Program-made: the position numbers and the translations under genes | Shown: one piece after another, positions 30,458 through 64,000 of the stretch | Numbering within the stretch: position 1 is the first letter of the stretch | Layout of the letters: each line of letters starts with the position of its first letter | From: a virus | Lineage: Duplodnaviria > Heunggongvirae > Uroviricota > Caudoviricetes | DNA: 64,000 bases | Virus record (IMG/VR): IMGVR_UViG_3300029733_000185 | Direction: 5' to 3' (one strand) | Notes under the pieces: model-generated | Told to the model about the DNA's origin: nothing | Seen by the model: only the letters and a program-made list of their open reading frames with translations | Database searches by the model: none

Positions 30458-30464
30458 GTATGTT

Positions 30465-30539
30465 TGGGTGGAATCCCGGGAGTCGAACCCAGATTACTTG
30501 TACCACAAACAAGCGTGCTACCGTTACACCAGAAACCAC
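30465..30539 (-). tRNA. tRNA-His(GTG)-like, possibly degenerate
   Basis: G-1:C73 feature and anticodon loop TTGTGGT, but two U-U mismatches in acceptor stem. Confidence 0.45.
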
Positions 30540-30617
30540 AAATGAGAAAGCGTATGTTTTGATTTTGCAACTATAATATAGAGCTGGGCTAAACATACAA
30601 AACAACTTCTACCCTTA

Positions 30618-30712
30618 TGGTGGTCGGAGATGAGGGAATCGAACCCACTCGAATGCCTAAGCACACCAGTTTTACAGACTGGGGTATCTACCTTAATACT
30701 TTAACCTCCGAT
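30618..30712 (-). tRNA. tRNA-Tyr(GTA)-like, long variable arm, irregular acceptor
   Basis: anticodon loop CTGTAAA, discriminator A73, long variable arm; A1-C72 mismatch. Confidence 0.45.
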
Positions 30713-30771
30713 TTATTAAATTGTCGCAGAATACCACGCCTGAACAACGGTTCAGACGTGGATAAATACAA

Positions 30772-32115
30772 CTATGCCGCGTTGTAAATTGTTTTTGCGT
30801 ATTTAAATGGTTGTAATTGCTTAACGCTTACAATTTTTTTGAATTCGTTATTTTTGATAGACACGTAAGTACCGCGGTTTTGTGTGCCAACCACTTCAAA
30901 TGTTCTGTTACGCCAAAGCACCGTATCATGTGGTTGGTACGGATATCGTTGTCTTCTGATAGATACTCTACCTTTGGAAATCTTTTGCTGTCTGTATGGA
31001 TGCAAGTTCTCACCATTCAGGTTTTTGTTACGAGTTGTTCTACCGCTAAATAATTCTTTACCGGTAGCCTTTTGACCCGTCCTTGCATCCACATATTTGG
31101 CATCGTGAAACTTTGCAAGACAACGATTATTTTTACGTTTCTCTTGCCAGAACACCGGTTCACACCGGTGCTTTGGCTGTTTGTCGCCGACACAATACGC
31201 ATCGTTGTAATGCGTTTTGTCTAACTGCAAATCTATCCGTTTGGATTTTGTCAAATAGCCAAAAGTCTCTACAACCGGAATCGTGTATTCATCACGCAGC
31301 TGTGTGATCAGCATTCGTCTGACCGTAGACATAAATGTCTCCGGTTTGAAAGACTTTTGCTTTGGTTGCAGACCATACAAAATCTGCCCCTTTTGATGAT
31401 TACGTGACGTATGACACTTGCTACACAGCGTTAATGTATTTGCAGGCGTATTTGAATGATCGTTTTTCCAATATCCGATATGATGCATGCGAAGCACTGC
31501 ACCATCTCGGAAAGCATTTTTACCACAGATCTGGCAAGTGTATCCGTCTCTGTAGAAAGTGTGCTCACGCAAATTTCGGAAGTCGTACATCTCGCCCTTT
31601 TGATATCCCTCACCGGAGATATCCGGGGTCTTTAATGCTTGAATATCGAAATTTGCGGTCTCTACATAGATCTTTGTAATCGGCAGAAGGCGCATCAACT
31701 TTCGAATGACCTTTTTGTGGCTGTCCAGCTTATGCTGAATGCTGGGTGCCAACCATTGGTCCGGTCTTCTGCGATTATCAAATCTTGGCTTGCGATGTCT
31801 CAAACGATTGCGACGCTTGCGACGATACGCTCGCCGGTCGTCTAATCGTTTGGACTGGTTTTCTAAAAGTTTTAATTCACCGGAAAACAACTCTTTGTTA
31901 TCAGTACAAGCAGAAATGCCAATATGCTGATAACCAGCATCGATTTTCAGATTAATGTCTTGTGTATTGTTTTCCGTCTCATAAAGCCATTGGATTGTAA
32001 ACGGATTGCCACTTACGACTTGAGCTTTATTGCTCTTCAACAGTTTGCGTACATAGCCACATCTTTCTGTTGGCATCAGTGGCTGGCCGTTTACATCTAA
32101 GACATACACCATCAT
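30772..32115 (-). CDS. iscB: IscB RNA-guided nuclease (PLMP, split RuvC, bridge helix, HNH, TI domains)
   Basis: 447 aa; N-terminus MVYVLDVNGQPLMPTERCGYVRKLLK (PLMP domain); RuvC-I LKIDAGYQHIGIS; Arg-rich bridge helix RRAYRRKRRNRLRHRK; HNH CQICG..HHI..N..CSKCH; RuvC-III HYNDAYCVG. Confidence 0.9.
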   Translation of the reverse strand: MMVYVLDVNGQPLMPTERCGYVRKLLKSNKAQVVSGNPFTIQWLYETENNTQDINLKIDAGYQHIGISACTDNKELFSGELKLLENQSKRLDDRRAYRRKRRNRLRHRKPRFDNRRRPDQWLAPSIQHKLDSHKKVIRKLMRLLPITKIYVETANFDIQALKTPDISGEGYQKGEMYDFRNLREHTFYRDGYTCQICGKNAFRDGAVLRMHHIGYWKNDHSNTPANTLTLCSKCHTSRNHQKGQILYGLQPKQKSFKPETFMSTVRRMLITQLRDEYTIPVVETFGYLTKSKRIDLQLDKTHYNDAYCVGDKQPKHRCEPVFWQEKRKNNRCLAKFHDAKYVDARTGQKATGKELFSGRTTRNKNLNGENLHPYRQQKISKGRVSIRRQRYPYQPHDTVLWRNRTFEVVGTQNRGTYVSIKNNEFKKIVSVKQLQPFKYAKTIYNAA

Positions 32116-32474
32116 AAGATATGGCTCCTTTCAATAAATTTGGTCTGGAATGACCAGCGCACAGACGGAGCCAAAGGCCCGGTCTGTGGTAAACCCACAT
32201 CGTCAATGTTATGAATTGTTTGTTGTGTACTGCACGTCTCCGACCCCATCAGAGATTTTTAACAACACACCGTAGTGCAAGGGGCTTGTGGAGCACCCCT
32301 TGGTACCTATTTGGCAGCCGAAGCTGCCATTAAAACATAACGTAGCACTCGAAGTGCTTAGACTAATCAACTATGGGCTTGTGATTTCTTACAAGCCCCA
32401 ACTGACTGTTTCACGGTTAGTCTGGGGTAATTGACAGTCAGGACCGCTACCGTTACGGAATATCGACGCATATA
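32116..32474 (-). ncRNA. omega-RNA of IscB (scaffold plus 5' guide region)
   Basis: about 360 nt non-coding region immediately upstream of iscB on the same strand; several stable stem-loops (GGGCTTGTGATTTCTTACAAGCCC, AAGGGGCTTGTGGAGCACCCCTT, CTGACTGT..ACAGTCAG). Confidence 0.65.
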
Positions 32475-32564
32475 CTGGTGCTGATAGTGGGAGTCGAACC
32501 CACACGGTGTTGCCACCATCGGGGCTTAAACCCGATGCGTGCTGCCAATTTCGCCATATCAGCA
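32475..32564 (-). tRNA. tRNA-Leu(TAA)
   Basis: 90 nt incl. CCA; anticodon loop TTTAAGC, long variable arm. Confidence 0.75.
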
Positions 32565-32629
32565 CATATAAATAGCCACACCTGATAGCCATACACACCA
32601 TTCAGTGTGGCTTTTTGCATTTATCGTTA

Positions 32630-33124
32630 TTATTTGGTAATCCGATCCGCAATTGTACTGGCCACAAAGGAATTTGGCTTGGTTTCAACATCGTAGCCGC
32701 AAGAGCGGATCCAACTTACCAACCCTGGGATAAGATCCTTTGTTTTCCCGTTAACCGAATTGCCCGCATCAATATGAATTGACAATGGATATTCTGCAAA
32801 CATCTCTCTATATATTGCATTACCCTCAAACATGTCTACCAGTTCCCCAGCCAAAGTTAACCTGGCAGCAGTTTCAGTTTGCAATTTGAGTTTTACATTT
32901 TGGATTAAGTCCTCACGAGAAACTTCGTAAAAGAAGATACCTCCATGTCCATGGGCAACAACCGCAATAACAGATACCATTTTTGTATTATTGAAATTTT
33001 GACTATCTGTGCCGACGATGATACTGATTTGATCTGTTTGTGCTTTATTACGCCGGTAATAAGCCAAGATAGCATCTGGAATTTCTGTAAGCTGTATTGA
33101 ATTCCCTGAACCGGTACAAAACAT
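32630..33124 (-). CDS. hypothetical protein embedded in tRNA array (possible RNase H-like fold)
   Basis: 164 aa, AAGGAGGG RBS; no secure motif; weak resemblance to YkuK/DUF458-like proteins. Confidence 0.45.
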   Translation of the reverse strand: MFCTGSGNSIQLTEIPDAILAYYRRNKAQTDQISIIVGTDSQNFNNTKMVSVIAVVAHGHGGIFFYEVSREDLIQNVKLKLQTETAARLTLAGELVDMFEGNAIYREMFAEYPLSIHIDAGNSVNGKTKDLIPGLVSWIRSCGYDVETKPNSFVASTIADRITK

Positions 33125-33148
33125 TGGACATACCCTCCTTGTAATTTT

Positions 33149-33236
33149 TGGCGGCGATGGAAGGATTCGAACCTTCGAGCCTTTTACAGCTAACGCGTTA
33201 GCAGTGCGCCGGTTTCAACCACTCACCCACATCGCC
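33149..33236 (-). tRNA. tRNA-Ser(GCT)
   Basis: 88 nt, long variable arm, anticodon loop CTGCTAA. Confidence 0.65.
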
Positions 33237-33240
33237 AAAA

Positions 33241-33316
33241 TGGTGCGCCGTTTGGGGTTCGAACCCAAGACCTCCAGATTAAGAGTCTGTTGCTCTACCG
33301 ACTGAGCTAACGGCGC
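33241..33316 (-). tRNA. tRNA-Lys(CTT)
   Basis: anticodon loop CTCTTAA. Confidence 0.7.
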
Positions 33317-33320
33317 ATAA

Positions 33321-33397
33321 TGGTCTGGACAACAGGATTCGAACCTGCGGTCTCCGGATCCCAAATCCGGCGCTTTACCAAACTAAGCTACGTCCAG
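33321..33397 (-). tRNA. tRNA-Pro(TGG)
   Basis: anticodon loop TTTGGGA. Confidence 0.75.
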
Positions 33398-33484
33398 ATA
33401 ACCAAATACATGCAGACAGATCAGATTTGCCGTGAAATATGTGCTCGACCACAGCAAGAATTCGATCTGATTTTGTCTGCATAT

Positions 33485-33559
33485 TGGCACCGCCTGCAGG
33501 ATTTGAACCCGCATTACAAGGTCCGTAGCCCTGTGTTCTGTCCTTTGAACTAAAGCGGT
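33485..33559 (-). tRNA. tRNA-Arg(ACG)
   Basis: anticodon loop CTACGGA. Confidence 0.75.
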
Positions 33560-33564
33560 GTATA

Positions 33565-33641
33565 TGGTGCCCCTACGAAGATTTGAACTCCGAATTGGGG
33601 ATTAGAAGTCCCCTGTTTTATCCAGATTAGACTATGGGGGC
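33565..33641 (-). tRNA. tRNA-Arg(TCT)
   Basis: anticodon loop CTTCTAA. Confidence 0.75.
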
Positions 33642-33644
33642 ATA

Positions 33645-33719
33645 TGGAAGCGATGCCGGGGATCGAACCCAGAATGCAAGAGTCAAAGTCTCGTGTTTTG
33701 CCGATTAGACTACATCGCC
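33645..33719 (-). tRNA. tRNA-Gln(TTG)
   Basis: anticodon loop CTTTGAC. Confidence 0.7.
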
Positions 33720-33838
33720 ATATAAGAGCAGGTTTTTCATTGACTGGGACACACACCAAAAATCTGGTGGAGGTGCGCAACGCTTCTCGTACTGCTATCT
33801 CGGCAATACCGAACGAGGCGAGTCCGGAACTCGCAAAT

Positions 33839-33924
33839 TGGTACTGGATAAGGGACTTGAACCCTTACGATCTAAATCAACGGATTTTGAATCCGTCGCG
33901 TCTGCCAAATTCCGCCAATCCAGT
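33839..33924 (-). tRNA. tRNA-Leu(CAA)
   Basis: 86 nt, long variable arm, anticodon loop TTCAAAA. Confidence 0.75.
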
Positions 33925-33939
33925 ATTTACATGAAAAAG

Positions 33940-34026
33940 TGGCGGGGCGTCAGGGACTCGAACCCTGAAGGCTGTTACACCCAACGGTTTTCAAGACCGC
34001 ACGACTACCAATTATCACAACGCCCC
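33940..34026 (-). tRNA. tRNA-Ser(TGA)
   Basis: 87 nt, long variable arm, anticodon loop CTTGAAA. Confidence 0.6.
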
Positions 34027-34120
34027 ACATATGCGGCAGACCGATATCGATCTGTTATAAGAACATTGGGAGAGGTGAATCACCCCTCTTATGCAGGAAC
34101 TCCTAAGTTACCTTGTTACA

Positions 34121-34197
34121 TGGCGACTCCGACCAGGCTCGAACTGGCAACCTCCAGCGTGACAGGCTGGCGCTCTACTCTTTTGAACTACGGAGCC
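34121..34197 (-). tRNA. tRNA-Asp(GTC)
   Basis: anticodon loop CTGTCAC. Confidence 0.8.
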
Positions 34198-34200
34198 ATA

Positions 34201-34286
34201 TGGTGCTCGATAAGAGATTCGAACTCTTACATCTTTCGATACCAGATCCTAAATCTGGCGCGTCTGCCAAATTCCGCCAATCGAGC
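34201..34286 (-). tRNA. tRNA-Leu(TAG)
   Basis: 86 nt, long variable arm, anticodon loop TTTAGGA. Confidence 0.75.
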
Positions 34287-34299
34287 AAATGAATAATAA

Positions 34300-34375
34300 T
34301 GGTGCGCCGTCAGAGAATTGAACTCTGGACCTTTAGATTATGAGTCTACTGCTCTAACCACTAAGCTAACGGCAC
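34300..34375 (-). tRNA. tRNA-Met or tRNA-Ile2 (CAT), elongator type
   Basis: anticodon loop CTCATAA; no initiator features. Confidence 0.65.
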
Positions 34376-34388
34376 AAACAACACAAAA

Positions 34389-34464
34389 TGGTGCGCGCAC
34401 GGGGACTCGAACCCCGGACCAATGGATTAAAAGCCCACTGCTCTACCAACTGAGCTATGCGCAC
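34389..34464 (-). tRNA. tRNA-Lys(TTT)
   Basis: anticodon loop CTTTTAA. Confidence 0.75.
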
Positions 34465-34477
34465 ATATTGGTTACAT

Positions 34478-34494
34478 CTATTAATACCACAAAT
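34478..34494 (-). promoter_or_regulatory. extended -10 promoter (TGTGGTATTAATA) driving tRNA sub-operon
   Basis: same TRTGnTATTAAT motif recurs at 22011-22026, 35941-35956, 38032-38046, 61755-61772. Confidence 0.45.
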
Positions 34495-34581
34495 TACAAA
34501 AAAACAAAAAAATGACCGGCTCAACAACGAAAGTTTTGATCGCGTTGAAACCGGCCAAGGTGCAATGAAAAAAATCCAAAG

Positions 34582-34658
34582 TGGAGCAGATAAGGGGATT
34601 TGAACCCCCACCACCGGTTTGGAAGACCGGGATGCTGACCATTGAACACCATATCTGC
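34582..34658 (-). tRNA. tRNA-Gly(TCC)
   Basis: anticodon loop CTTCCAA. Confidence 0.8.
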
Positions 34659-34663
34659 ATAAG

Positions 34664-34739
34664 TGGTGCTGGATATCTGACTCGAACAGATTACCTTCGG
34701 GTTACAAAGCCGACGTTCTACCAGGTGAACTAATCCAGC
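34664..34739 (-). tRNA. tRNA-Thr(TGT)
   Basis: anticodon loop TTTGTAA; C31-C39 mismatch as in the other Thr gene. Confidence 0.65.
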
Positions 34740-34768
34740 ATTTATGCGCCTTTGAAGGCGCTTGGATT

Positions 34769-35086
34769 TCAGGGCAAAATACACTCCAAAAAATGATGCA
34801 AATCAGGCATCGGAATGTATTCCCGCCGCACCTCAGCAATGTCCTTGCCGTCGCGATCATGCGGCAAGGCGTTATATTCTTTGACATAATTTTGCACAAG
34901 AGTATTGAGCAATTCTTGCTTCTTTTCTACCAGCTGCTTGCACTGGCGCAGAGACTCAACCGCAGAGACAATCTCATTTTCCTTTTCTCTGCGAACGTTT
35001 TCTCTGTCCTGTAAAGCGTTCTCAGCTGTTTTTAGCTGCTCTTCAGTGTCATATAGTTCTTTAGTCAATTCTGAAAAATATTTCAT
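34769..35086 (-). CDS. coiled-coil hypothetical protein
   Basis: 105 aa, heptad-rich, charged. Confidence 0.45.
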   Translation of the reverse strand: MKYFSELTKELYDTEEQLKTAENALQDRENVRREKENEIVSAVESLRQCKQLVEKKQELLNTLVQNYVKEYNALPHDRDGKDIAEVRREYIPMPDLHHFLECILP

Positions 35087-35253
35087 ATTTGTACCTCTCT
35101 TAAAAATAATTCAAACCTTTGAGTATTACGATAGCAGTTATCAGTAAAATGATAATCCTACTTAGCCATAAAACCCACTGTCTACTCGAAACACGCAGTG
35201 CATAAACGCACACAGATGTTGTTAGCGTAATGGCTATAAGCCAAATGAGACGA

Positions 35254-35409
35254 TTAGTCTCCAAACCACATCGTGCACCACTTCAAGATGCCCTCAACGT
35301 CTGGATCTACATGCTCTTTATTCTTGCAGGCGTTAACGATTAAATCAAACGCCTTTGCCTTATCGGCTGGCTTCATTTCAGTCAATGTTTCAAAATCTTT
35401 TTCAATCAA
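35254..35409 (-). CDS. small protein candidate (51 aa, TTG start) not in ORF track
   Basis: GAGGT RBS 8 nt upstream of TTG; balanced composition; coordinates +/-1. Confidence 0.25.
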   Translation of the reverse strand: MIEKDFETLTEMKPADKAKAFDLIVNACKNKEHVDPDVEGILKWCTMWFGD

Positions 35410-35462
35410 TGTTTATTACCTCTTTTGACAAATATTGTTGCACATTTGCCCGTGCCAGGCTT

Positions 35463-35538
35463 TGGGCCCGGGAGTGGGATTCGAACCCACGACTGTTGGC
35501 GTATGAGGCCAACCTGCTAACCGCTGCATTATCCCGGT
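35463..35538 (-). tRNA. tRNA-Met(CAT)-like, A1-G72 mismatch
   Basis: anticodon loop CTCATAC, T-loop TTCGAAT; mismatched first acceptor pair; not initiator-like (no GGG/CCC anticodon stem). Confidence 0.5.
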
Positions 35539-47561: not shown

Positions 47562-50500
47562 TTACCACGGAGAAGTCTCACGTGTCTTGAAGTCGTCAAA
47601 CAGGCTTCCGTTGATCTTTACGGCGTTTGAATCACCAACATAGCTTAACATACCACTTGGCGTCCAGCAATCAGCAACACGAACCTGGATCTTGTAGTCC
47701 GTATCGTTTGGATACCATACCGGGACATGGTGCAGTGAACGTGCGCTGCTGTCCTCATCCTCATATTCCATAAACTTAAACCAATATGGGTTTTCGTTCG
47801 TGTTGGCACCAGTAGGACGCAATGATGCATAAGGTCCAAAATACTTTCTGTCAGTTGGAACCGATTTGAGTCCATACATCGCATACAACGCCGAGTATTT
47901 ACCATTGATTGTCTGGTAATTGTACTCTGGATAATATGCCAATGCAGATTGCGCGTTTACGCAACTATCATCTGGTAAAACAGGATCCGTCTTACGCTGT
48001 GGCGTTAAGTCCGCTGTTACTCGACTCTCAAGACTGTAACCGCTTTTGGTTTCCCAGTAATTCTCGTCGTTATTGTTTTCGACTTTTTTGCTTGGGTTCT
48101 GAGCACTGCCTGCACCGGTAGATGCCAGAGGTTTTAACAGATTCTCTTGGAAGCCAAGTCTTGCTGTGTAAGTATGCAGTTTAAACACTCCATTTTCGCA
48201 GGTGTATTCCTGCCATGAAGTCGTGTTCGCATACGGCTTGTCATTTGTCGGGTCTTTATAAGAATATCCATCTCCACCATTCAGGTTATAACCTTCATAA
48301 TTTGTGAAACTGGTATCGTCAAGATCGTTTAGCTGCACAAGGTTTTTGTCTTGCAGCCCTGAGTCGCAATACACAAACTGTCCATTCCCCTCGTCATTAT
48401 AACGTACCTGAACCCACGGTACGACACCATAGAACTTGTATCCCAATGATTCATAAGAGTCGTCAATTGAACTAACAGCAGGCGTTCTAACAGTATAATA
48501 AATCAGATTGTTCTTTGCAGCCGGTACTACAGCGGTTCTGGCGGCGTACTGACAGTTGTATCGACCAATCAATTTCTTATCGTATTTGACTTCCACATTT
48601 TCAATGGCTTCATACTGCCACTCTCCTGTGTTTAAATTATACAATTTGGCATACAGACCACCGGTCGCATTCAAAGCATTTTGATCGGTAAAGTTTTTCG
48701 TGCTGTGGTTATCCACTATAAAGGACGTTACAACATCCGTGCCATATGAATACTTTGCATTTGGATATTGGAATTTAACATCCACGGGCAGATACTTTTC
48801 ATTGACATAACAACCGACATTGTAAGTAGCACCTTTACTTCCGTCTGTCGGAACACCGCCAAACAAACCGATGTGCTTTTTTTCTGAATCTTTATGTCCT
48901 GGTGCTTCATAGCACAATTGATACTTTAAATTTGCTGTACCACTTGGTCCACACCCGAACCACATTGTTGATGGCTCTGAATAATACGCTGTCATAGAAT
49001 CCAAAAGCTCTTTCGGGAAGTAATAGCTAAATACAAACGGGAAATCTTCTTTGTTATAGTAAGAAGAAAGCTTTGTGTTTGCTTGTACTCCGCTTGAAAT
49101 AGCAAATCCCATATTTTCAATTTGCTCTTCTGGACTTAATGCAAAGACCTCTCCAAACTGCGCTGCCCAAGAGTTTTCATCGATCGTATCGCGATTTGTT
49201 TCCGGTCCGTACAGCATTTTCGCAAACTCTAATTCCGTCATAGTGTCGGAGCTAACATTTTTCTCTTTTACAGCACTGTCTGGGATTGCATACGGCAATA
49301 GATCCACCTGTCTCTTTAATGGGTCAATCGGATCCGTAGAGCCACCAGCGGCTTCATATGCTTCTTTTGACAGATAGGTGTTGACGACTATGCCAGCCGT
49401 ACACTCAACGTCAAATGAATGGTCTGCAGTAATATTTTCAAAGGTATAGCTACCACCACTCCAGTACTTATAAACGTCGCTGACTGTCTTTTCAGTGTCG
49501 AGTCCTTTATCAATCACAATCTTATTTACCATAAATCCGTCATTTGGCGTAAACTCAATGGTTTTTGTTTCGCCATACTGTATTTCGGTAATTGTATCTG
49601 TAATTGTGCCGTTTGTAATACTGGTAGTAATTGTAAACGCAGGCACACAAACCACCTCAATAGACTTATCACCTACAAGCATTTGCAATAAGTCAACACG
49701 ATATTCTTGCTTATTTGCATCCCAATTCCAAATCAACGGACGAGTTGGGGTAGCCTTGCCACCTTGTGTAACCTTCTTTCCGTCAATCAAGACGGTATCA
49801 ACACGATAGCCTGGATCTGGTTTGAACGTAACAATACCATATGCCTTTGCTTGACTATAGTTACCATAGCGCAATCCCGTTACCGTATCAGAAATCGTTC
49901 CGTGTTGAATGCTGGTCGTGATTTTACAAGTATTCAAATCCATTTCAGCAGTATAATGTTCAGTTCCCTCATATTGCAACAATGGAGCTCCTTGTATATC
50001 GCTTTTGAATTTAAATACCAGGTTTGCAGTTGCATTACCTACATTCCCATTATAATTGGTTGACGTTTTTCTGCCATACAAACCAAACAAACGACGCTCA
50101 TCTTCTTGAATCGAAGATTCAATACTTGACAATATCCGCACGCTCATTTTATAAGGGTGCGTGCTTACAGGATAACGAGAGTCAGAACCATCATTTTTTT
50201 CAATTTTATAACCAGTATAGAAAAAATTCGATTTTCCAAACCCTTCGTTTGTTCCAGCAGCGCCACCACACCAAGTATAGGAATAACCGTCATTGTCTTT
50301 TAATACATCTCCATTTTCAAGTGTAATAGGTGTCGTGTAATTTGGACGTGCATCCCACTGATTTAACCTTGTTAATGGAAGCTCAGTATCATCATTTGAC
50401 TCCCCAAGCGTATGAAGCGTATTGCCTAATGTAACCTTATTTCCTTTGTTTGCACCGGCTGTGACAACCGTATTCTGTAATTTGTTAATATTATCGACTT

Positions 50501-53500
50501 TTTGCTTTAACCGGTCAGATTGGAATTCGTATGCGCTTATACCAACAAAATCGCTTGGGCGAACACCGGTTTTAGTAAGCATTTCAAATGGATTTACAAC
50601 AATGTCTGGATTTTCTTTTAAGCTGTTTTTGATATTATACTTTGTTGCGGCATCAGTTGCGTATATATCAATCGTTGTTGTAGAACAAAGCACCTTCAGA
50701 ATAACAATAAATGAACCATCGCGAGGCAGATTGTGCAACTTAAAATCACTTAACATATTATATAACGCATCAGAAGATATAGTAGTATCCGAATTTCCAA
50801 AGTAAAAGACTTCTGAATTCTCGTAATCAATATCCTTACCCCGGTATGTCACATCATCCGGAGACTGCGGATAAAGAGACTTTAAAGCGGTATATTTAAT
50901 AAAAGCGTCATCGTCATCCTCGTGAATAGCGTTATATGCATTATCTGGTATATTTCCTAATGGATAATACTCCAAGGCGAAGCCATATGCGTTCAAGCCT
51001 TCCATACCTTGTTGTAATTGATTCACATAATCTTTATCATCAAAGCTTGTCACTGTACACGATTGACCGAGCGAAAGGTACTTGGCAGACTTCTTAACCG
51101 CAGTACCGTCTACGCTAATTGGCAAACCATTCGACGTTACTGCGTAGAATTCACCGTATACTGATGATGCATCCACGAAGTTCAGCAAAATATTATTTCC
51201 GTTTTTAAAAGGCATTTTAGACACATCAGACAAGCTTTCAAAGGCTGCACTGCTTTCTCGTCCTATTTCTGCCTTTAAATCAGAAACGGGTGTATAGCCA
51301 GACAAAGATTTTACAGTAGCGCTCAAATCTTCGTTGTCAGATTTTGAAAAATCGTCGCACAAAACATTGTAATACAAGTCTTCGCTTGATTTTACAGTTA
51401 CAGAAATCCGATATTTTTTAATCAACTTAAAGTTTGATTTAGCTTTGCTGAACGCAGTTGTGTAAAAGCTGATACCCTTTGTTAACAAGCCGGCATTGTC
51501 ATCAGAATTCAAATTCCAGCCGTTGGCAAATTCTGTGACCTGCATAGCATTGTTGGACTCTTTTTCAGCTTTATAATCATCATAGCTAACAGAAAAATCA
51601 AACTCCGACTTCGTTTTTTCATCACGATATTGATAAGTCTTATTGTAATTTAATACTCTTGGAAGATCAGCTGCCGTTGGCTTGGTGTCGCGGCCATTGA
51701 TTAACATTTCGACAGCATTTGCCGTATCTGCCATAAGATTTGTGTCTGCCGTCTTGCCGACATCTCTCAGATTCACAGAAGTGTAAGGAGTGAATTTTCC
51801 GGAATTATTTTTTGTATAAAATCGAATGGTTGGCTCTGCATTTTTAAAAAACGAAAGCCCATCGTAAGACTTCATATCAATGGCGTCAAAATACATTGTA
51901 ATGGTTTGTTCATGCAATTTATCTGACTTCAGATAATAATCGGCCTTTGCATATTTTCCTGTATATGTAACCTTTTGAGACGGCTCATCAAACCATACGG
52001 AGCTTTTTTTGTTTTCCCAAACATTGACTGCTTTCCCATTTTGAATAAATGAAAAATCAAAACGATAGTTGCCAGGTTCCTTAGGATAGTACGCATAATT
52101 AAAATACACAGAACCATCATTTCCTAAAGACATATCTTTACTAACATCGATTTCTTTATCCAATTCTACAGCCTGATATTCACCTGTTTCGTCCTGCTTA
52201 TACACACTCAGCGACAATTTCTCGATCGGCGAATTACCATCTTCATCCGGATTTAAATTCATGGAATTAAGATGCGTATGCACACGCAAATCCACATAAG
52301 CCGCACTGTACAAATCAACTTCTGTTAGATAATTTTTCCCGATAACCGATTTTTGACCTGTAACCTTCGCGCCTGCAAAAGCCTTCAAAGATGAAACAAC
52401 CGTCTTTTCCTCGACCGTCTCAAAAGGCTTACCAACCTGTGCGTCAGCGTTATTAACGGCATCGTATGAGTAATAACTTAGTTTAACAGATTGATAATCC
52501 TGAATATTCTTATCGTCTTGTCCCACTCTAAAATCATGATCAGGAAGAATCAAAAATTTATAAGAATCAGCATCACCTTTAAACTCGACCATTCCGTTTT
52601 CATCGGTCTTGTACACCTTTACGTCTGGATCAGAATTTGGCTCACCGCAAACAGAACAATACAAGTCAGAATATTTGTTGTAGACGTAAAATGTACTCGC
52701 ATGGTTGAATATATTGTTTTCATCTAACCAGTCCAGTACCTCACCACATGCCGGGCATTTGATTGCACCCAAAGAACAATGTTCACCGCAAACGCTACAC
52801 TCACGATAAGAACACCCAGCGCAAACCCATTTTAAATCTTCCGGGTTTTCTGATTTTGCAAAGTCATCAAACTTATCGTTTGAAAGTACCAAAATTGAAG
52901 CGTTTTGTGCGGGCTTGCGTGTGCCGTCTGAAGAATCATAAATAACCAACCGGTTAAATTGGTCTCCGACATAACACTCTGCATCATATTCTCTTACTTG
53001 TCCTGTATATCGTATGCCACCGCCGGTCACTTCATCTTGATAATAATATCGATCAGTTGTGTTGTCACGAATAACAAAGTAATAGTAATAACCGACTTGC
53101 AGTTCGCTACTTTCCAGTCTCACCTGTGCATAAGACGGATAAAGTACAGTAGAGCACTGCGTTGTGCCTGGTGCTTGTAAGGTGCCACACTCATAGCACT
53201 GCCATCTCTTTGCTTGATCTTTGCACAGCCACTTCGTGCTGTTTCCGATTTTTACTTCATAAAATGTTTTTACAATCAGATCTTCTGGCGCTACTTCTAC
53301 AGAAGAACTACATAGATTGATAGGCATCGCAGATAAAAAGCCGTCACTGCTCATTTGATATGGAGTCGTTTTGTGAATAATTTTGTTGCTTTTTTGTAAC
53401 GCTTCAACATTATTTCCTTCAACCCAGTGACCGCCCGGGCAATATACAAAGGATTTTGATTTACCAGTGTATTCATAGCCAGCAACACCATACTGCTTAC

Positions 53501-56500
53501 CAGTGCATCTCTCCGGGTATTGAGGATTATTGAGTGTGTTTGGCGTTGCGGTCGTCAATTTATCGGTTACATCCTTTACGTACTCCACATCATACATTGA
53601 ACCTTGACAAGTCAGCGTAGAGTTAGAATGGCCACAGGTAGAGCACTTCCAAGTCTTGGACGAAGCCGTTTGTTGCATATAGGTATTTGTGCATGTTTCT
53701 CCATCGCATTCAAAACCACTATTTGTAGTTCCGCACTTTGAACATTGCCATGCTTCCGGAACAACCCAAAACTCAGGGACACTTCCCTGGTCGTCGATAG
53801 ATTTACCGCAGTCTGGACAAATAGAAGCATTCTCTACGATACTACCGCATGAGCACTTCCAAGCATAGTCGTTTTGAGCCGTCAAATAATCAGTGAAATT
53901 TGAACCACACTTTTCATTGATGTTGTTGAACAATTCATCCGCATTGACCGGCAGCGAAGAAAGTGACTTGGATCGATACAAAAGCAGCTGAGAACCGGTT
54001 TTAAGCAGATTTAAAGCCCCAACAGCTTCGTCTCCGCGAGCAAACAAATTATACTCAATACCGCCTTCACCATCGCCCTTAGGCATATAATACAGATACA
54101 CATTCAGAGTGCCGTGCATTTCATCAACAGTAAAATCAGGCTCCGCTGCTACTTCTTTATGTTGGTAGTTACCAAACACATCTATGTAACCATAAGCACC
54201 AACATAATCGCATGTGCTTCCACCATATTCTACAGATTCTTTGAAATATGGAACGTTTTCTGTAGTCGTTGTTGTATTGCCGTCAGCGTCCGTCTGTTCA
54301 ACGGTATCTTCATAATAACCGCCTTTAAATGTAAACGCTTTAGCTGCGTCCCAATCCAGAACCTTCGATGACACAATAGCGTTGTCTTCATAGATAGAAG
54401 AACTATTGTAATCAAAGCTGTCTGTCAATGCCACATAGTTCAGAATGACTTTAGAATCACTGACCGGAGCAAATGTAACATGGATATCAGAAGCCTTCAA
54501 AGATGCAACATTCGTGTTGAAGGACATTTTATAGAACTGCTCACTGTTTTGTGGATAAAGTGTTCTGGAACCAACAGGGCTGCCGTCTTTATTTACTGCA
54601 CCATCGTCTACAACAATGCTCACAATCTTAAAGCCAGTTGATTTTGGAATCGAAACCGTAACTACCTTGCCCAATGAGTTATTGTCCGTTACATACATAT
54701 CTGTTTCCACAGAATTTTCGTATTCAGTTGAAGCTCCGGCCTGCCCGGAAGGCTTAATCGCCTTGTTGCTCCCCTCTTGAAGCGTCCAGTTATCTGATAC
54801 GCTTACCCATTTGGAGATTTTCTTTTGTGCCTCATCTGCAGCTTCTTTTGCATCAGCCGCAGCTGCCACCGCCTGATCATCACTTGGATCAATTGTTACA
54901 TCTTTATAATTGGACTCATAATAATTGATGGCATTTAGCAAATCATCAATTCCGGACAAAGAACCGGCTGCTGAAATATTGTTTTGCAGCTGCCACTGCG
55001 CATAATAGGTTACTTCACCTTCAGCAGGCGTCTTGATCGTCGTTACCTGATCTTTAGCATAATCATAGTTATCTGCCGTAGCGCCCCAGCCCTTGAATGT
55101 CCTGTTCAGATCTTCCAAATCGCCGTTCAGCCCGGCTATTGCAGCTGTGCCCGTACAATCATGCCCCTTTACTGAAGGCGCATTGATCGTCTGTCCAACG
55201 TTAGCAGTTGTTGAACTGATCGTTGCACCACACAGCGCACAAGCGAAGTTTACCGTAGACTGCAGCGTGAATGTGTACTTTGCATAATACACTGTCACTT
55301 TAGCACTTGGCATTGTAATGTCATTGCCGACAGTCAATGAAGCATTATCCGACTTATCATTCACCGTATAATCAGGATTTGTTCCCCAATAGCTGAATGC
55401 AATTTTATAATCACTCAGCGGATGACCTTTGTATTGCAAATTACTTAAATTGCTGGAGTCATTATGAGACTCGCCTGCAGGCACAGGACCCTGTGTTGAG
55501 CCTGGTGCACCACGCAGCAGCGCAATCTCATTTTCATCAATGGAACACTTAAATAAAACTTTGTTTTCATTCGTCAACTTGAGGGTGTACTTTGCATAAT
55601 ACTTTTGCGTGCTGCTTGGCACAGTTGTTTGAGAACCGGCCTTATGGTTGCTCAACACGCTCAAGCTATCGTTCAGTGTGCCGGTAGCCAGCTTATCATT
55701 TGCATTGCTGTCTTGCCCCCAACCTTGGAATGTGATTGAATAATCTCCAACATCAATGGTCTTGCCATTGTATGTAATCTTTCCACCGTTGACAGAGCAC
55801 ACATGTTTTGAACCGGTTGGGATAGTGTACTTTTCTCCGGCGTAATGTTCTCTGTCATTTTTACTGGTTGAAGTATCATACAGTTGTGCTCCGCACAAAC
55901 CGCAGTAATACACTGCTCTGCCCTTTGCGTTCTCTTTCTTATCCAGGCACATCCAGAATGTGGTATCGCCATAAATCTTTTTCTGACTTGGCGTCGGATT
56001 GGTCATTTTTGAGCCATTCTTTGACGCGCTCCAATGTTTATAGCTATAAGTATATTTGTAGTTGTTGTGCTTTTGAGGATGCGTCTTTTCTTGGTCGTTG
56101 AAGTAGCTTCCGGAAACTGTCTCACCATGTGCCACAGCAATCATCTTTAAGGTCGCTCCATCTTCAGAACATTTTAAATAAGCCTTATGTGCCACGGTCT
56201 TTAGATTAAACAGCACACGCACGGTATCATAACGACCACCACAGATATAGCCCTTAACACCGGCAGTTTTATCTTTGCCCTGGAAATACGTTGCTTTGTT
56301 ATAAATATCAGGTGCATTCATATGCCAAGCCAAATTGACAGACACATTGGACCGGCGGGATGTGTAGAATGTCAGCTTATTACCGCTCACTTCTACCTTC
56401 ATAAACGGTTCTGCAGGTTTTGTTTTCAGCTTAGCGGAGCTTACTGGAACATAGCCATAATAGCTGCTATCCTTTTTTTGCTTGTTACCAAAATACACGC

Positions 56501-57713
56501 AATAATATTTACCGTTTCTTGTCTTTCCAAGAATTGTAACTCCAGATTTCTGTCCATTTTTGGTAGTTACCAAGCCAGGGCGCACTGCGCTGTTCACATC
56601 ACAAATCACCTTAGACTGTGTAGTTGCTTGCGAATAGACTTTAACATCACCGGTAAAAGTGGTGGTAAATACTGAGCCATCACTGTTTCGAATAGGAAGC
56701 ACAATCTTATTTGGATCATACTTGCCATACTCAGTACCCAAAAACTTTTTGGAAACATAGTAAGTAGATTCATAACGCTTTTTGCTGTCATTCCATGCCA
56801 TCTGTGTATAATCATTACTACCCAGATCGCTGAAGTTACGCCATTGACTTCCACTCTTATACTGGAACTGCTGCCCATTCATCTGCATCTCGGCAGCTTC
56901 CAAAATTTCGTTATAGTAATCAGGACAATCTTTTACATTATTGAAATACTTATTCTTTACAGTGTAATAGAAGTCATGCCAATAATAACGATAAGAAGCG
57001 TCAATGCTCTTGCTGTAAGATCCTACGATATCCTGACTGCGCTCTTTATGCTTAGCATTAGCCTTATACGATTTAGAACGCACATCCGTCCACTTCGTAT
57101 CATTGCCAAAGCCAACACGCTTGCCCTCATCCAGCTCCCACAGAATACACTGTGTAGCAATAAAATACAGCTGCTCACGATAAAACTGATCACCGGAGTT
57201 AGTGGTGAATTGTTTAAAACCGTTGAGGAGGACATAATAAATTCTCCGCGCCCTCTTTTCTGGAAGTTTAATACCGTCACTTTTTGCAGCATTAATAAAA
57301 TCAGTAATCTTGTTTGGATCTACATTGATTGTCGTTACCGCACTGGCTCCGCTCTCATCACTGGTATAACCGTAAGATCTGGAAAGACGGAAAATCGGCA
57401 CTTCATCTTTTCCAGCATTCTTTTCACTGCCGGACAAATCTGATGAAACATACTTTCTCAGAAGATTGGTCGTACCAGCACCGGCTTTGTTCCCGGCAAT
57501 TTCTCTACTGTATTCCGGAATGCGAATTTTACCATTCTCATTCTTACCATAGTTGTAGTTCCAGGCAACTTTGTATTTCTTACCATTGGAAATGGTAATC
57601 TGCCCAGATGCTACGTTGGCAAATGCCTGAATGGCTCCGACCGGAAATGTTGTAAAGAACATTAGCAATGCCAAGAACACAGATAAAATTCTTTTTGGAA
57701 TAGATTTTTTCAT
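47562..57713 (-). CDS. giant secreted protein (3383 aa) with Listeria-Bacteroides-type repeats and multiple CxxC zinc-ribbon motifs
   Basis: signal peptide MKKSIPKRILSVFLALLMFFTTFPVGAIQAFA; repeats with FKGWG...YYAQW signature; at least 8 CxxC...CxxC clusters; no LPXTG. Confidence 0.85.
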   Translation of the reverse strand: MKKSIPKRILSVFLALLMFFTTFPVGAIQAFANVASGQITISNGKKYKVAWNYNYGKNENGKIRIPEYSREIAGNKAGAGTTNLLRKYVSSDLSGSEKNAGKDEVPIFRLSRSYGYTSDESGASAVTTINVDPNKITDFINAAKSDGIKLPEKRARRIYYVLLNGFKQFTTNSGDQFYREQLYFIATQCILWELDEGKRVGFGNDTKWTDVRSKSYKANAKHKERSQDIVGSYSKSIDASYRYYWHDFYYTVKNKYFNNVKDCPDYYNEILEAAEMQMNGQQFQYKSGSQWRNFSDLGSNDYTQMAWNDSKKRYESTYYVSKKFLGTEYGKYDPNKIVLPIRNSDGSVFTTTFTGDVKVYSQATTQSKVICDVNSAVRPGLVTTKNGQKSGVTILGKTRNGKYYCVYFGNKQKKDSSYYGYVPVSSAKLKTKPAEPFMKVEVSGNKLTFYTSRRSNVSVNLAWHMNAPDIYNKATYFQGKDKTAGVKGYICGGRYDTVRVLFNLKTVAHKAYLKCSEDGATLKMIAVAHGETVSGSYFNDQEKTHPQKHNNYKYTYSYKHWSASKNGSKMTNPTPSQKKIYGDTTFWMCLDKKENAKGRAVYYCGLCGAQLYDTSTSKNDREHYAGEKYTIPTGSKHVCSVNGGKITYNGKTIDVGDYSITFQGWGQDSNANDKLATGTLNDSLSVLSNHKAGSQTTVPSSTQKYYAKYTLKLTNENKVLFKCSIDENEIALLRGAPGSTQGPVPAGESHNDSSNLSNLQYKGHPLSDYKIAFSYWGTNPDYTVNDKSDNASLTVGNDITMPSAKVTVYYAKYTFTLQSTVNFACALCGATISSTTANVGQTINAPSVKGHDCTGTAAIAGLNGDLEDLNRTFKGWGATADNYDYAKDQVTTIKTPAEGEVTYYAQWQLQNNISAAGSLSGIDDLLNAINYYESNYKDVTIDPSDDQAVAAAADAKEAADEAQKKISKWVSVSDNWTLQEGSNKAIKPSGQAGASTEYENSVETDMYVTDNNSLGKVVTVSIPKSTGFKIVSIVVDDGAVNKDGSPVGSRTLYPQNSEQFYKMSFNTNVASLKASDIHVTFAPVSDSKVILNYVALTDSFDYNSSSIYEDNAIVSSKVLDWDAAKAFTFKGGYYEDTVEQTDADGNTTTTTENVPYFKESVEYGGSTCDYVGAYGYIDVFGNYQHKEVAAEPDFTVDEMHGTLNVYLYYMPKGDGEGGIEYNLFARGDEAVGALNLLKTGSQLLLYRSKSLSSLPVNADELFNNINEKCGSNFTDYLTAQNDYAWKCSCGSIVENASICPDCGKSIDDQGSVPEFWVVPEAWQCSKCGTTNSGFECDGETCTNTYMQQTASSKTWKCSTCGHSNSTLTCQGSMYDVEYVKDVTDKLTTATPNTLNNPQYPERCTGKQYGVAGYEYTGKSKSFVYCPGGHWVEGNNVEALQKSNKIIHKTTPYQMSSDGFLSAMPINLCSSSVEVAPEDLIVKTFYEVKIGNSTKWLCKDQAKRWQCYECGTLQAPGTTQCSTVLYPSYAQVRLESSELQVGYYYYFVIRDNTTDRYYYQDEVTGGGIRYTGQVREYDAECYVGDQFNRLVIYDSSDGTRKPAQNASILVLSNDKFDDFAKSENPEDLKWVCAGCSYRECSVCGEHCSLGAIKCPACGEVLDWLDENNIFNHASTFYVYNKYSDLYCSVCGEPNSDPDVKVYKTDENGMVEFKGDADSYKFLILPDHDFRVGQDDKNIQDYQSVKLSYYSYDAVNNADAQVGKPFETVEEKTVVSSLKAFAGAKVTGQKSVIGKNYLTEVDLYSAAYVDLRVHTHLNSMNLNPDEDGNSPIEKLSLSVYKQDETGEYQAVELDKEIDVSKDMSLGNDGSVYFNYAYYPKEPGNYRFDFSFIQNGKAVNVWENKKSSVWFDEPSQKVTYTGKYAKADYYLKSDKLHEQTITMYFDAIDMKSYDGLSFFKNAEPTIRFYTKNNSGKFTPYTSVNLRDVGKTADTNLMADTANAVEMLINGRDTKPTAADLPRVLNYNKTYQYRDEKTKSEFDFSVSYDDYKAEKESNNAMQVTEFANGWNLNSDDNAGLLTKGISFYTTAFSKAKSNFKLIKKYRISVTVKSSEDLYYNVLCDDFSKSDNEDLSATVKSLSGYTPVSDLKAEIGRESSAAFESLSDVSKMPFKNGNNILLNFVDASSVYGEFYAVTSNGLPISVDGTAVKKSAKYLSLGQSCTVTSFDDKDYVNQLQQGMEGLNAYGFALEYYPLGNIPDNAYNAIHEDDDDAFIKYTALKSLYPQSPDDVTYRGKDIDYENSEVFYFGNSDTTISSDALYNMLSDFKLHNLPRDGSFIVILKVLCSTTTIDIYATDAATKYNIKNSLKENPDIVVNPFEMLTKTGVRPSDFVGISAYEFQSDRLKQKVDNINKLQNTVVTAGANKGNKVTLGNTLHTLGESNDDTELPLTRLNQWDARPNYTTPITLENGDVLKDNDGYSYTWCGGAAGTNEGFGKSNFFYTGYKIEKNDGSDSRYPVSTHPYKMSVRILSSIESSIQEDERRLFGLYGRKTSTNYNGNVGNATANLVFKFKSDIQGAPLLQYEGTEHYTAEMDLNTCKITTSIQHGTISDTVTGLRYGNYSQAKAYGIVTFKPDPGYRVDTVLIDGKKVTQGGKATPTRPLIWNWDANKQEYRVDLLQMLVGDKSIEVVCVPAFTITTSITNGTITDTITEIQYGETKTIEFTPNDGFMVNKIVIDKGLDTEKTVSDVYKYWSGGSYTFENITADHSFDVECTAGIVVNTYLSKEAYEAAGGSTDPIDPLKRQVDLLPYAIPDSAVKEKNVSSDTMTELEFAKMLYGPETNRDTIDENSWAAQFGEVFALSPEEQIENMGFAISSGVQANTKLSSYYNKEDFPFVFSYYFPKELLDSMTAYYSEPSTMWFGCGPSGTANLKYQLCYEAPGHKDSEKKHIGLFGGVPTDGSKGATYNVGCYVNEKYLPVDVKFQYPNAKYSYGTDVVTSFIVDNHSTKNFTDQNALNATGGLYAKLYNLNTGEWQYEAIENVEVKYDKKLIGRYNCQYAARTAVVPAAKNNLIYYTVRTPAVSSIDDSYESLGYKFYGVVPWVQVRYNDEGNGQFVYCDSGLQDKNLVQLNDLDDTSFTNYEGYNLNGGDGYSYKDPTNDKPYANTTSWQEYTCENGVFKLHTYTARLGFQENLLKPLASTGAGSAQNPSKKVENNNDENYWETKSGYSLESRVTADLTPQRKTDPVLPDDSCVNAQSALAYYPEYNYQTINGKYSALYAMYGLKSVPTDRKYFGPYASLRPTGANTNENPYWFKFMEYEDEDSSARSLHHVPVWYPNDTDYKIQVRVADCWTPSGMLSYVGDSNAVKINGSLFDDFKTRETSPW

Positions 57714-61775: not shown

Positions 61776-61818
61776 CAAAAAAGCAAAAAGCCTCCGAGCC
61801 AAAAGGACATCGGAGGGC
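61776..61818 (-). terminator. intrinsic terminator after SecB-like gene
   Basis: CCTCCG..CGGAGG stem plus U-run. Confidence 0.55.
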
Positions 61819-61856
61819 AAAATTGAATTTTCCATCAAGGTGAAGTCACACCACAA

Positions 61857-62309
61857 CTATTCGACATACGTGACTTCACAATTTTCTAATGTATTAGCAT
61901 GCAAATCCACCAGTGGCAAATAGTATGCCGGATATTTGCTTTGCCCTGTAATGGACGAAACAACTGGTCGCATATAAGATAGTAATGCAGCTGCTGTATC
62001 AATAGACAAAAAATGATTTAAAGTCTCCTTATCTACATCTTCCCATTCTACTGTGGTACACATTGTGAAATCAACACAAAAAGGAGACCCGTTTTTTGTA
62101 CCAATGACCCAACGCAGCGCAGCGAACGCCTGATGCTTCCTATTATTGATTTCCAATGATAATGAAAATGCGTTATTTAAGGTAACTTGTTTATCTGTAC
62201 ATTCAAAATTTTCGTTTTCTTTGAACACAAGCTCTTTAATGAACGGATTATGCATCGTCAACTTACTCTTAGCCATATTCATAGTTCCACCTTCTGTTAC
62301 TGAAATCAC
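61857..62309 (-). CDS. SecB-like chaperone-fold protein
   Basis: 150 aa; pattern IKELVFKENENFE...FAALRWVIGT...FCVDF..C..VEW...LNHFLSIDTAAALLSYMRPVVSS...PAYYLPLVDL parallels SecB fold. Confidence 0.45.
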   Translation of the reverse strand: MISVTEGGTMNMAKSKLTMHNPFIKELVFKENENFECTDKQVTLNNAFSLSLEINNRKHQAFAALRWVIGTKNGSPFCVDFTMCTTVEWEDVDKETLNHFLSIDTAAALLSYMRPVVSSITGQSKYPAYYLPLVDLHANTLENCEVTYVE

Positions 62310-62310
62310 G

Positions 62311-62862
62311 TTAAGTTTGCTTCATGGAATATTTTTTTGATTTGACATCAGCATCATATCCGCGCTTTTTATCAGGATATATTTGATGATTGGTATCAAT
62401 GAAAAGAGGAAAAATCACGCTATCATCAACTAAATAGAATACCAAACGAGCAGGTGCCTCACCACTTGCAAGTTGTACTTGATATATATTTTCGGCTGTT
62501 AATTCACGAACTCTCTCATCTCGAAACCCATAACCGCCTAAAATTTTCTTAACAAACTCAACCCGATTTTTGTCAATACTATGACAGTGTAGTGATCCAT
62601 CTCCCATAAACGCACTGAGACTTTTGTACTGCGATATATGTCTTAATTTTTCAAACCCACTGTCTAATACAAACACGCACTCTTCTGCATTCTTAAAATG
62701 GTTGTTAAAGCCTGATATGGTTATTGAGTGTTTTTGAAAATCTTTTAAGCTAATTGTCAGTCCGTTTGCACTTTTGGGAGACGGGTTGGCAATAAGTGAA
62801 GAATTATCCAAGTTGCCAGGACGAATTCGTCCATTTCCTTTGTTATTTTTATTCTTACTCAT
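62311..62862 (-). CDS. toxin candidate of Panacea-type TA module (unknown family)
   Basis: 183 aa; overlaps Panacea gene by 8 nt and SecB-like gene start by 1 nt. Confidence 0.45.
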   Translation of the reverse strand: MSKNKNNKGNGRIRPGNLDNSSLIANPSPKSANGLTISLKDFQKHSITISGFNNHFKNAEECVFVLDSGFEKLRHISQYKSLSAFMGDGSLHCHSIDKNRVEFVKKILGGYGFRDERVRELTAENIYQVQLASGEAPARLVFYLVDDSVIFPLFIDTNHQIYPDKKRGYDADVKSKKYSMKQT

Positions 62863-63412
62863 CTACAAGCTGATTGATATAGAAGCCACGAATAACATTC
62901 GGATCGATTTTTGCACTTGATGGAATATCATAATTGAGTCTTTTTCTTGCTTTGATCCACGGATCTTCACTGTGTGTTAAGCGTTCCAATTGGCCAGCAG
63001 TAAAGCTACCATAAGCATCCCAAACTTGATTTAAAACATCAAGCACGTCGCCGGGTAAAGAGATCTTCTGCTTGTAAAGTGGAATATCCTCCCACCCATA
63101 CTTTTTATATTTATAGTAGAGCTTTCTGCAAACGGGGCCATGAATCCACGCCTCAAACCCCTCGCGACAAATTTCGGTATCAATCTTATCGCAGTCTTCG
63201 TCCTCTGCATCTTCCAGCAATATAATGCACCAGCAGTAAGCATAATAACACAACTTTTGCAGTTTTTTATTCGACATGCTTTCTTTAGACAAAAACCAAT
63301 TAGCAATCTGAAAGATCAGATCCTGCGGTTCGTTATCGAACATAAGGGACGCAGTAGAATATCCACTCACCTTTGAGCAATCATAATTGTCATTAAATCC
63401 ACTTTGATTCAT
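62855..63412 (-). CDS. Panacea-domain (DUF4065, PanA/SocA-like) antitoxin
   Basis: KLQKLCYYAYCW...FEAWIHGPVCRKLYYKYKKYG matches Panacea core (KLQKLLYYAQGW...EAWxxGPV..VY..YK.YG). Confidence 0.7.
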   Translation of the reverse strand: MNQSGFNDNYDCSKVSGYSTASLMFDNEPQDLIFQIANWFLSKESMSNKKLQKLCYYAYCWCIILLEDAEDEDCDKIDTEICREGFEAWIHGPVCRKLYYKYKKYGWEDIPLYKQKISLPGDVLDVLNQVWDAYGSFTAGQLERLTHSEDPWIKARKRLNYDIPSSAKIDPNVIRGFYINQLVDE

Positions 63413-64000
63413 ATGTCACACCCCTCCGTATTCATAATATACCACACAAGACATATTAACTCAATAGCAAATTGCGCCTGTCATATTATTATATGGAAAT
63501 TATATCACACGCTACGAGCCGTAAAAATCAGACATTGACATCTCATATTTTTTAATCGTTGAAAGACAATGAAACTCTGTCTACAAATTAATACCGAAAA
63601 AAATATAAAACAAAAAGCCACACTTGGCACTCAGAATGATCTGCGCCCAGTTGTGGCAACCGATAAATATAAAGGGGTCGAATTGCTCCAACCCCTTAGG
63701 TATGAGTCCGCAAACACATACCCCGATTAATATAATTATACATCAAACAGGAAATAAAGACAAGACTTGTCAAAACAAGAGTGCAAAGCAAAAAAAAGCA
63801 GTGAAAGCGCCAACAACGACGCCTTCACTAGCTATTACTCCGCATATCCTATCCGGAGTTTTTGCCATGAGTTATCAAATTCAAATGGTGAAGTGCTTAT
63901 CGTAACACTCCGCCGAAAGCCTAACCGGTTTGAGCAATATGCTTGGTTAGGTCTGTTTTATTATATTATGCAGTTTTACTGTATTGATACACTTAAATGC

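Follow-up and report, generated by a model that had tools for sequence, protein, structure and literature searches.

A candidate toxin-antitoxin-chaperone cassette combining a Panacea-domain protein, a predicted HigB-like toxin and a SecB-like protein

In the 64,000-nt stretch of the IMG/VR virus record IMGVR_UViG_3300029733_000185 that we analyzed (the window, throughout this text), three minus-strand open reading frames (ORFs) at 61857-63412, all running in the same direction and already called as such in an initial annotation of this DNA, belong to a compact three-gene cassette of ~1.9 kb. In our judgment, the cassette is probably a toxin-antitoxin-chaperone (TAC) module with a swapped antitoxin, the gene order antitoxin-toxin-chaperone (A-T-C) and no C-terminal addiction tail, located in a defense island of a large conjugative element. 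This reading is supported by Panacea and SecB matches above the Pfam cut-offs, and by the fact that the third protein matches the chaperone model of the CmdTAC system and not the equivalog models of housekeeping SecB. The features of the cassette proper are as follows.

62855-63412, minus strand: gene A, 185 amino acids (aa), predicted Panacea-domain (PanA-type) antitoxin
62311-62862, minus strand: gene B, 183 aa, predicted toxin with a RelE/ParE-superfamily (HigB-like) fold
61857-62282, minus strand: gene C, 141 aa from the ATG at 62282, predicted SecB-like chaperone
61777-61819, minus strand: terminator-like hairpin GCCCTCCGATGTCCTTTTGGCTCGGAGGC followed by a T-run, 38 nt past the stop of C

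The three genes and their products

The initial annotation had read a Panacea/DUF4065 core in the first gene, an 8-nt overlap between the first gene and the second, a second gene without a recognizable sequence family that might encode a toxin, and a SecB-like third gene. The overlap was found as described, and the other points were borne out by the searches reported below, the toxin candidacy at the level of a structural model. The proposed start of the third gene, 1 nt past the stop of the second, did not hold. It corresponds to a GTG at 62309, from which the mechanically called ORF measures 150 aa; this codon is absent from the diverged lineage represented by locus L042, whereas the ATG at 62282 and its Shine-Dalgarno sequence are kept there. 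Consequently, C likely starts at ATG 62282 (or 62276), with GAAGGTGG just ahead. The first of these starts leaves a gap of 28 nt between B and C, with the Shine-Dalgarno sequence inside it, and we saw no terminator between the two genes. The A-T-C order places C next to the toxin gene. The hairpin past the stop of C (-22.8 kcal/mol, z -2.2) occurs in the window and in loci L004 and L006, and is replaced in L042.

Gene A scored 50.1 bits against the Pfam model SocA_Panacea (PF13274; gathering cut-off 25.7, E 6e-13, residues 51-152) and also matched PHROG 1281 (E 3e-38). It therefore carries the Panacea/DUF4065 domain expected of a PanAT antitoxin. The conserved Panacea core begins at about residue 31, and residues 1-30 form a polar extension bearing the aromatic residues F6, Y10, Y18 and F25, all of which are kept in L042. 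When A was compared with its homologue in L010 (the nearest relative of the type with a gene X, described below), the two proteins were 65% identical over residues 31-185 only, the N-terminal segment being the sole part of A that did not align. The same extension is missing from the homologues in the two-gene loci L016 and L019. It is the only candidate addiction element that we saw in A.

Gene B gave no match in Pfam, NCBIfam or PADLOC, none of 48 members of its family matched Pfam, and sequence and profile searches against the PDB returned only noise. Word-index homologue searches with B and C retrieved near-identical proteins only; 54 relatives of B came to light only when 1.8 billion cluster representatives were searched exhaustively with HMMER. 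In the family alignment, R139, D156 and H159 are invariant, F52, N54 and H94 are nearly so, and the C-terminal part carries a conserved LFxDxNHxIY motif. An AlphaFold2 model of B built from the single sequence was unusable (predicted local distance difference test score, pLDDT, of 40), while supplying the family alignment raised the pLDDT to 86.4, with a predicted template modeling score of 0.79. The latter model shows a disordered, basic N-terminus of ~35 residues and then a helix-and-sheet core with the fold of the RelE/ParE superfamily (BECR), HigB being the best match. On the strength of this model, we concluded that B is a divergent HigB/RelE-type toxin at the fold level. Residues H94, R139, D156 and H159 sit in core strands of the model; they may resemble the HigB set H54, R73, D90 and H92, a correspondence offered as a lead only.

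Gene C scored 33.5 bits against the Pfam SecB model PF02556 (cut-off 26, E 4.5e-8) and matched the PADLOC model PD-T4-9_C, that is, CmdC, the SecB-like chaperone of CmdTAC/PD-T4-9 (E 9e-6). A profile of C and two relatives retrieved Haemophilus influenzae SecB (1fx3, E 1e-5) across beta3-beta4-alpha1. Against the NCBIfam SecB equivalogs, however, C fell below every cut-off, the best score being 32.5 bits where 143 is required. Because C lies so far below these export-chaperone thresholds, we regard it, as far as its sequence can tell, as a SecB-like paralogue and not as the housekeeping export SecB. No relatives of C were found in IMG/VR.

Conservation of the module and relatives of the Panacea-B pair

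Contigs of 92-619 kb, drawn from many human metagenome samples, encode a B protein identical to that of the window; A-B-C stay constant along them and the genes upstream vary. L042, with 90-93% nucleotide identity to the window, keeps all three genes. Between the two, the ratios of nonsynonymous to synonymous substitution rates (dN/dS) were 0.08 for A, 0.15 for B and 0.20 for C, values indicative of purifying selection on all three. The homology extends from the TATAAT box at 63740 to ~20 nt past the stop of C, and both flanks are unrelated. Since the shared block spans the leader to just past the stop of C and the flanks have been replaced, C appears to travel with A-B, and the alignment identifies the three genes and their leader as one discrete, selected module. 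A SecB-family chaperone gene thus shares an apparent operon with the predicted toxin-antitoxin pair, as in TAC systems, judging by the short spacer, the shared terminator, and the co-retention and co-selection in L042.

Loci with relatives of B were collected from GTDB genomes (two metagenome-assembled genomes of the Oscillospiraceae/Ruminococcus type), IMG/VR and metagenomes, and their ORFs were scanned with hidden Markov models built in this analysis. A Panacea gene was found immediately upstream of B, usually overlapping it, in every locus with enough upstream DNA (~15 lineages), meaning that A-B can be recognized as a conserved PanAT-type pair. The pair also falls within the operational definition of a PanAT locus (Kurata et al., PMC8832971).

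In most of these relatives, a small gene that we call X (108-153 aa) lies upstream of the Panacea gene and overlaps it. The X family comprises more than 200 proteins; a match to DUF3467, mostly below the Pfam threshold, was present in 104 of the 121 that were scanned. A profile search of the PDB with X gave one insignificant match only, and no description of the family was found in the literature searched. We considered whether X might be a divergent SecB and rejected the idea, as an hhalign comparison of the X family with SecB-like proteins showed no relation. Likewise, no trace of a degraded X gene was found in the leader of the window. The X-Panacea-B cassettes are widespread in gut Firmicutes and in prophage-like regions (L007, L008, L010-L015, L027-L041, L043-L046). 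In these cassettes (an example is L010:3147-4522), the Panacea protein has a long low-complexity N-terminus, and the B-family protein often ends in a Cys-rich C-terminal tail. They are also found at the lysis end of prophage-like regions, far from secretion genes; in L043 the cassette adjoins holin and amidase genes.

Five loci (L016, L019, L021, L025 and L026) contain Panacea and B genes only, and allowed the Panacea proteins of the two arrangements to be compared. The KK[LI]QK motif of the Panacea protein lies at residues 48-94 when X or SecB is present versus 21-58 in two-gene loci (Mann-Whitney p 0.004, obtained with related lineages and with several start codons that are uncertain). In two further X loci, the motif was at positions 65 and 91. 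The additional N-terminal stretch is polar and low in complexity, with aromatic residues scattered through it, and two-gene forms have none or a shorter one. These comparisons are suggestive of an N-terminal extension that tracks with the third gene. The termini of B, on the other hand, are alike in two-gene and three-gene forms.

The conserved leader and the genomic setting

The module begins upstream of A with a stretch bearing the following features.

63423-63427, minus strand: GGAGG, ribosome-binding site of A
63436-63464, minus strand: TTGAGT-17-TATATT with extended TG, the proximal promoter-like site, 24 nt before the start codon of A
63465-63763, minus strand: conserved non-coding leader, a ~330-nt block with the promoter-like sites
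63763-63735, minus strand: distal promoter-like site TTGTCT-17-TATAAT, in the leader
63697-63672 and 63657-63617, minus strand: two terminator-like hairpins in the leader, each followed by a T-run
63586-63559, minus strand: third hairpin of the leader

The initial annotation had placed promoters at 63430-63446 and 63726-63742, and a hairpin in the leader. The hairpin was seen, at 63697-63672. As for the promoters, suitable hexamers are present at 63464-63436 and 63763-63735, but the region holds five promoter-like sites where shuffled sequences would lead one to expect 9.5; because the observed number is below this expectation, hexamer matches alone prove nothing. Among the four lineage variants that were aligned, the proximal site shows no difference in sequence.

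The leader as a whole shows ~95% column identity among the window, L005, L006 and L042, a conservation at least as high as that of the genes, and it is kept with the cassette wherever the cassette occurs, across lineages with differing flanks. It is non-coding, since indels break every reading frame; a 41-aa ORF at 63505-63630 was discarded as a gene for this reason, its frame being broken in L042 and L006. Equally insufficient was the idea that the hairpin at 63697-63672 serves as the terminator of the 165-aa gene upstream, because hairpin and leader persist in L006 and L042, which do not have that gene. One compensatory pair was seen in the leader, in the third hairpin, and no Rfam family matched. 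Possible roles of the leader are those of a short RNA or an attenuator.

The spot occupied by the cassette behaves as a variable defense island. Depending on the contig, the genes upstream include AbiLi/AbiLii, a PD-T4-10_B-like gene, a DUF4325/DrmA-like gene beside another Panacea gene, or a second SecB cassette. In L001 (6421-9115), the AbiLi/AbiLii pair lies beyond the window, with the other Panacea gene next to the DUF4325/DrmA-like gene and a MarR regulator further upstream. The second SecB cassette, at L005:7383-8831 (just upstream of the cassette described here and outside the window), takes the place of the AbiL genes. It has the classical order toxin-antitoxin-chaperone (T-A-C) and encodes a 142-aa unknown protein, a 201-aa PD-T4-10_B-like protein and a 133-aa SecB-like protein; the latter is 32% identical to C.

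Other genes of the window, and the one that runs into its end, are listed below.

811-3342: VirB4/TraG-like ATPase
4291-7986: 1231-aa M23 peptidase protein
17225-18274: DUF3991-Toprim primase-like gene
22079-24247: RecD-like helicase
26809-28824: topoisomerase III
29645-35538, minus strand: 26 tRNA genes, all on this strand
30772-32435: IscB-type gene (RRXRR plus HNH, 447 aa) and, after it, a HEARO/omega RNA (Rfam RF02033, 129 bits), lying within the tRNA array
47562-57713, minus strand: giant ORF of 3383 aa, downstream of the cassette
63748-64000, running off the window end: 165-aa PD-T4-10_B-like gene, directly upstream of the cassette

The genes between 811 and 28824 are typical of conjugative elements, and cassette-bearing contigs can be as long as 349-619 kb. 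Plasmid-like or conjugative elements do not usually carry an array of 26 tRNA genes. In related contigs, the giant ORF has counterparts of 3355-3367 aa annotated as DUF8195, which are constant across the contig variants. We found no near-identical DNA in collections of E. coli genomes, plasmids or phages, and the GTDB species representatives do not contain the element. Assignment to the 'Inocle' elements was rejected on guanine-plus-cytosine content (~40% vs 24-32%).

Proposed mechanism, alternatives and relation to known systems

The chain of events that we infer, from toxicity and neutralization to the chaperone's client, the trigger and the toxin's target, would start from one transcript encoding a Panacea antitoxin, a toxin of HigB/RelE fold and a SecB-like chaperone. 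The toxin would most likely be a ribosome-dependent mRNA endonuclease, and the Panacea protein would bind and neutralize it directly, as in PanAT pairs. The antitoxin may be unstable or prone to aggregation by virtue of a disordered segment, most likely the N-terminal, aromatic-bearing extension of 30 residues, which a SecB-like tetramer would shield. If the chaperone were titrated off, for example by structural proteins that an infecting phage has just produced (as happens in HigBAC and CmdTAC), the antitoxin would be lost, and the freed toxin would stop translation and abort the infection. The same logic would penalize loss of the element. Because a SecB export chaperone is of no general use to Firmicute-type elements, a role of C as guardian of A is the most economical reading.

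This scheme has precedents. SecB-like chaperones have been found to protect antitoxins and to be displaced by phage capsid or tail proteins, and TAC chaperones bind the disordered addiction element of an unstable antitoxin via aromatic residues (PMC11618068; bioRxiv 10.1101/2024.02.24.581848).

Several observations weigh against reading the cassette as a TAC module. Its A-T-C order contrasts with the T-A-C order of the described systems; in all TACs surveyed in 2013, the antitoxin was encoded downstream of the toxin (PMC3581621). A has no C-terminal extension of the disordered, chaperone-addiction (ChAD) type found on TAC antitoxins, its C-terminus aligning end to end with those of two-gene homologues. 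Neither B nor the 48 family members scanned match a curated RelE, HigB or ParE model at the sequence level, and a Foldseek search with the model of B had no significant hit (best E 0.3), the top matches nonetheless being HigB again (S. pneumoniae). The relatedness of the lineages and the uncertain start codons reduce what can be drawn from the extension-length comparison. Finally, Panacea and B are neighbors in every locus with enough upstream DNA, and SecB was present in the window's lineage only, all other members of the A-B family being without it. The SecB association hence rests on one lineage of close elements plus a variant ~8% diverged.

A-B might instead be a self-sufficient two-gene PanAT system to which the SecB-like protein has been added with another client, for instance in folding or holding the toxin, or as a sensor or adaptor. 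We consider this unlikely. The five two-gene loci indicate that the pair can work alone, A has no C-terminal ChAD, and C adjoins the toxin gene and not the antitoxin gene; moreover, the finding that CmdA is needed to fold CmdT illustrates that TACs may assign client roles in unconventional ways (PMC11618068). However, the feature that tracks with the third gene is the N-terminal extension of the Panacea protein, and not any part of B, whose termini do not differ between the two forms, and C is co-selected within the module.

Much less probable is that the cassette is no toxin-antitoxin system at all, and consists of a stand-alone Panacea protein and a non-toxic, RNA-binding or regulatory B, or else serves the conjugative element itself, e.g., in secretion chaperoning. 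DUF4065 proteins are indeed common in phages without a proven antitoxin role and populate PHROG families of unknown function, the catalytic residues of B are only inferred, and genes of the type IV secretion system kind lie in the same window. Yet the tight, conserved and overlapping Panacea-B pairing is the hallmark by which PanAT loci are defined (PMC8832971), proteins of RelE/ParE fold are in their great majority toxins, the defense-island setting fits a toxin-antitoxin role, and the lysis-end X-Panacea-B cassettes are remote from secretion genes.

Least probable of all is that the SecB-like gene is a leftover or neighbor of another TAC cassette in a recombination-prone island, with no tie to A-B: the island does hold another SecB cassette (L005), its content differs from contig to contig and the closest A-B relatives have no SecB, but the 28-nt spacer with its conserved Shine-Dalgarno sequence and no visible terminator, the dN/dS of C, and the L042 homology block running from the leader to just past C between replaced flanks all speak for a genuine third gene.

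Taken as a TAC module, the cassette would, by analogy, work most like HigBAC (M. tuberculosis Rv1955-57; E. coli NT1F31), with which it shares the three genes, the SecB-like chaperone, a toxin of HigB/RelE fold, and the defense or mobile-element setting. It differs in having a Panacea antitoxin instead of the helix-turn-helix HigA, in its A-T-C order (T-A-C in HigBAC) with no C-terminal ChAD and a candidate addiction segment at the N-terminus, and in a toxin that has an extra N-terminal region and no sequence-level match to HigB. To our knowledge, the only antitoxin types wired to SecB-like chaperones are HigA, MqsA, HicB and CmdA, and always via a C-terminal tail. With CmdTAC (PD-T4-9), the common points are the match of C to PD-T4-9_C and the logic of a chaperone-guarded antitoxin that senses phage structural proteins, which is proposed here too. 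CmdT, however, is an ADP-ribosyltransferase and not of RelE fold, and A and B gave no PADLOC hit and show no similarity to CmdA and CmdT.

PanAT systems share with the cassette a Panacea gene upstream of and overlapping the toxin gene, in a pair conserved in many lineages, but they were described as two-gene systems with sporadic accessory third genes (Kurata et al. 2022, PMC8832971), whereas the chaperone-family gene is here integral and selected. Panacea partners with RelE/HigB/YoeB-like folds are already listed in a supplementary table of that study, and neither SecB nor DUF3467 is mentioned in its text or in the supplements searched. Our full-text literature searches likewise returned no paper linking Panacea/DUF4065 with SecB beyond generic citation. 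The pairing of Panacea with a RelE/HigB-like toxin is therefore known as a two-gene arrangement, and its combination with SecB, which the initial annotation had held to be an undescribed variant, is indeed not described in the TAC literature searched.

The closest counterparts are the X-Panacea-B cassettes, with orthologous Panacea and B proteins (A 65% and B 45% identical to those of L010) and a low-complexity N-terminal extension; their third gene is the upstream, DUF3467-like X and not a downstream SecB-family gene. This likeness raises the possibility, which we put forward tentatively and hold to be rather doubtful, that the Panacea-B family is inherently tripartite, with a disordered N-terminal addiction segment guarded by an exchangeable third protein. 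The guardian would usually be X, and here a SecB-like protein recruited through non-orthologous displacement. In that case, DUF3467 proteins would represent a second, unrecognized class of toxin-antitoxin chaperones or phage sensors, widespread in gut Firmicutes and their prophages, and either terminus of an antitoxin could receive a chaperone-addiction element, as could the hyperpromiscuous Panacea scaffold.

TAC systems have recently been shown to act as phage sensors, in which the chaperone reads newly made capsid or tail proteins. If the cassette works as proposed, chaperone control would extend to the Panacea domain, which is the most promiscuous one known among antitoxins, and an addiction element could reside at the N-terminus and in another gene order. 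From the sister cassettes, a DUF3467-like protein would then emerge as another possible guardian. At ~1.9 kb, the system offers a small test case for the modularity of chaperone sensors, and, on this view, many of the Panacea loci of gut bacteria that look like 'two-gene plus hypothetical' may be tripartite defense systems.

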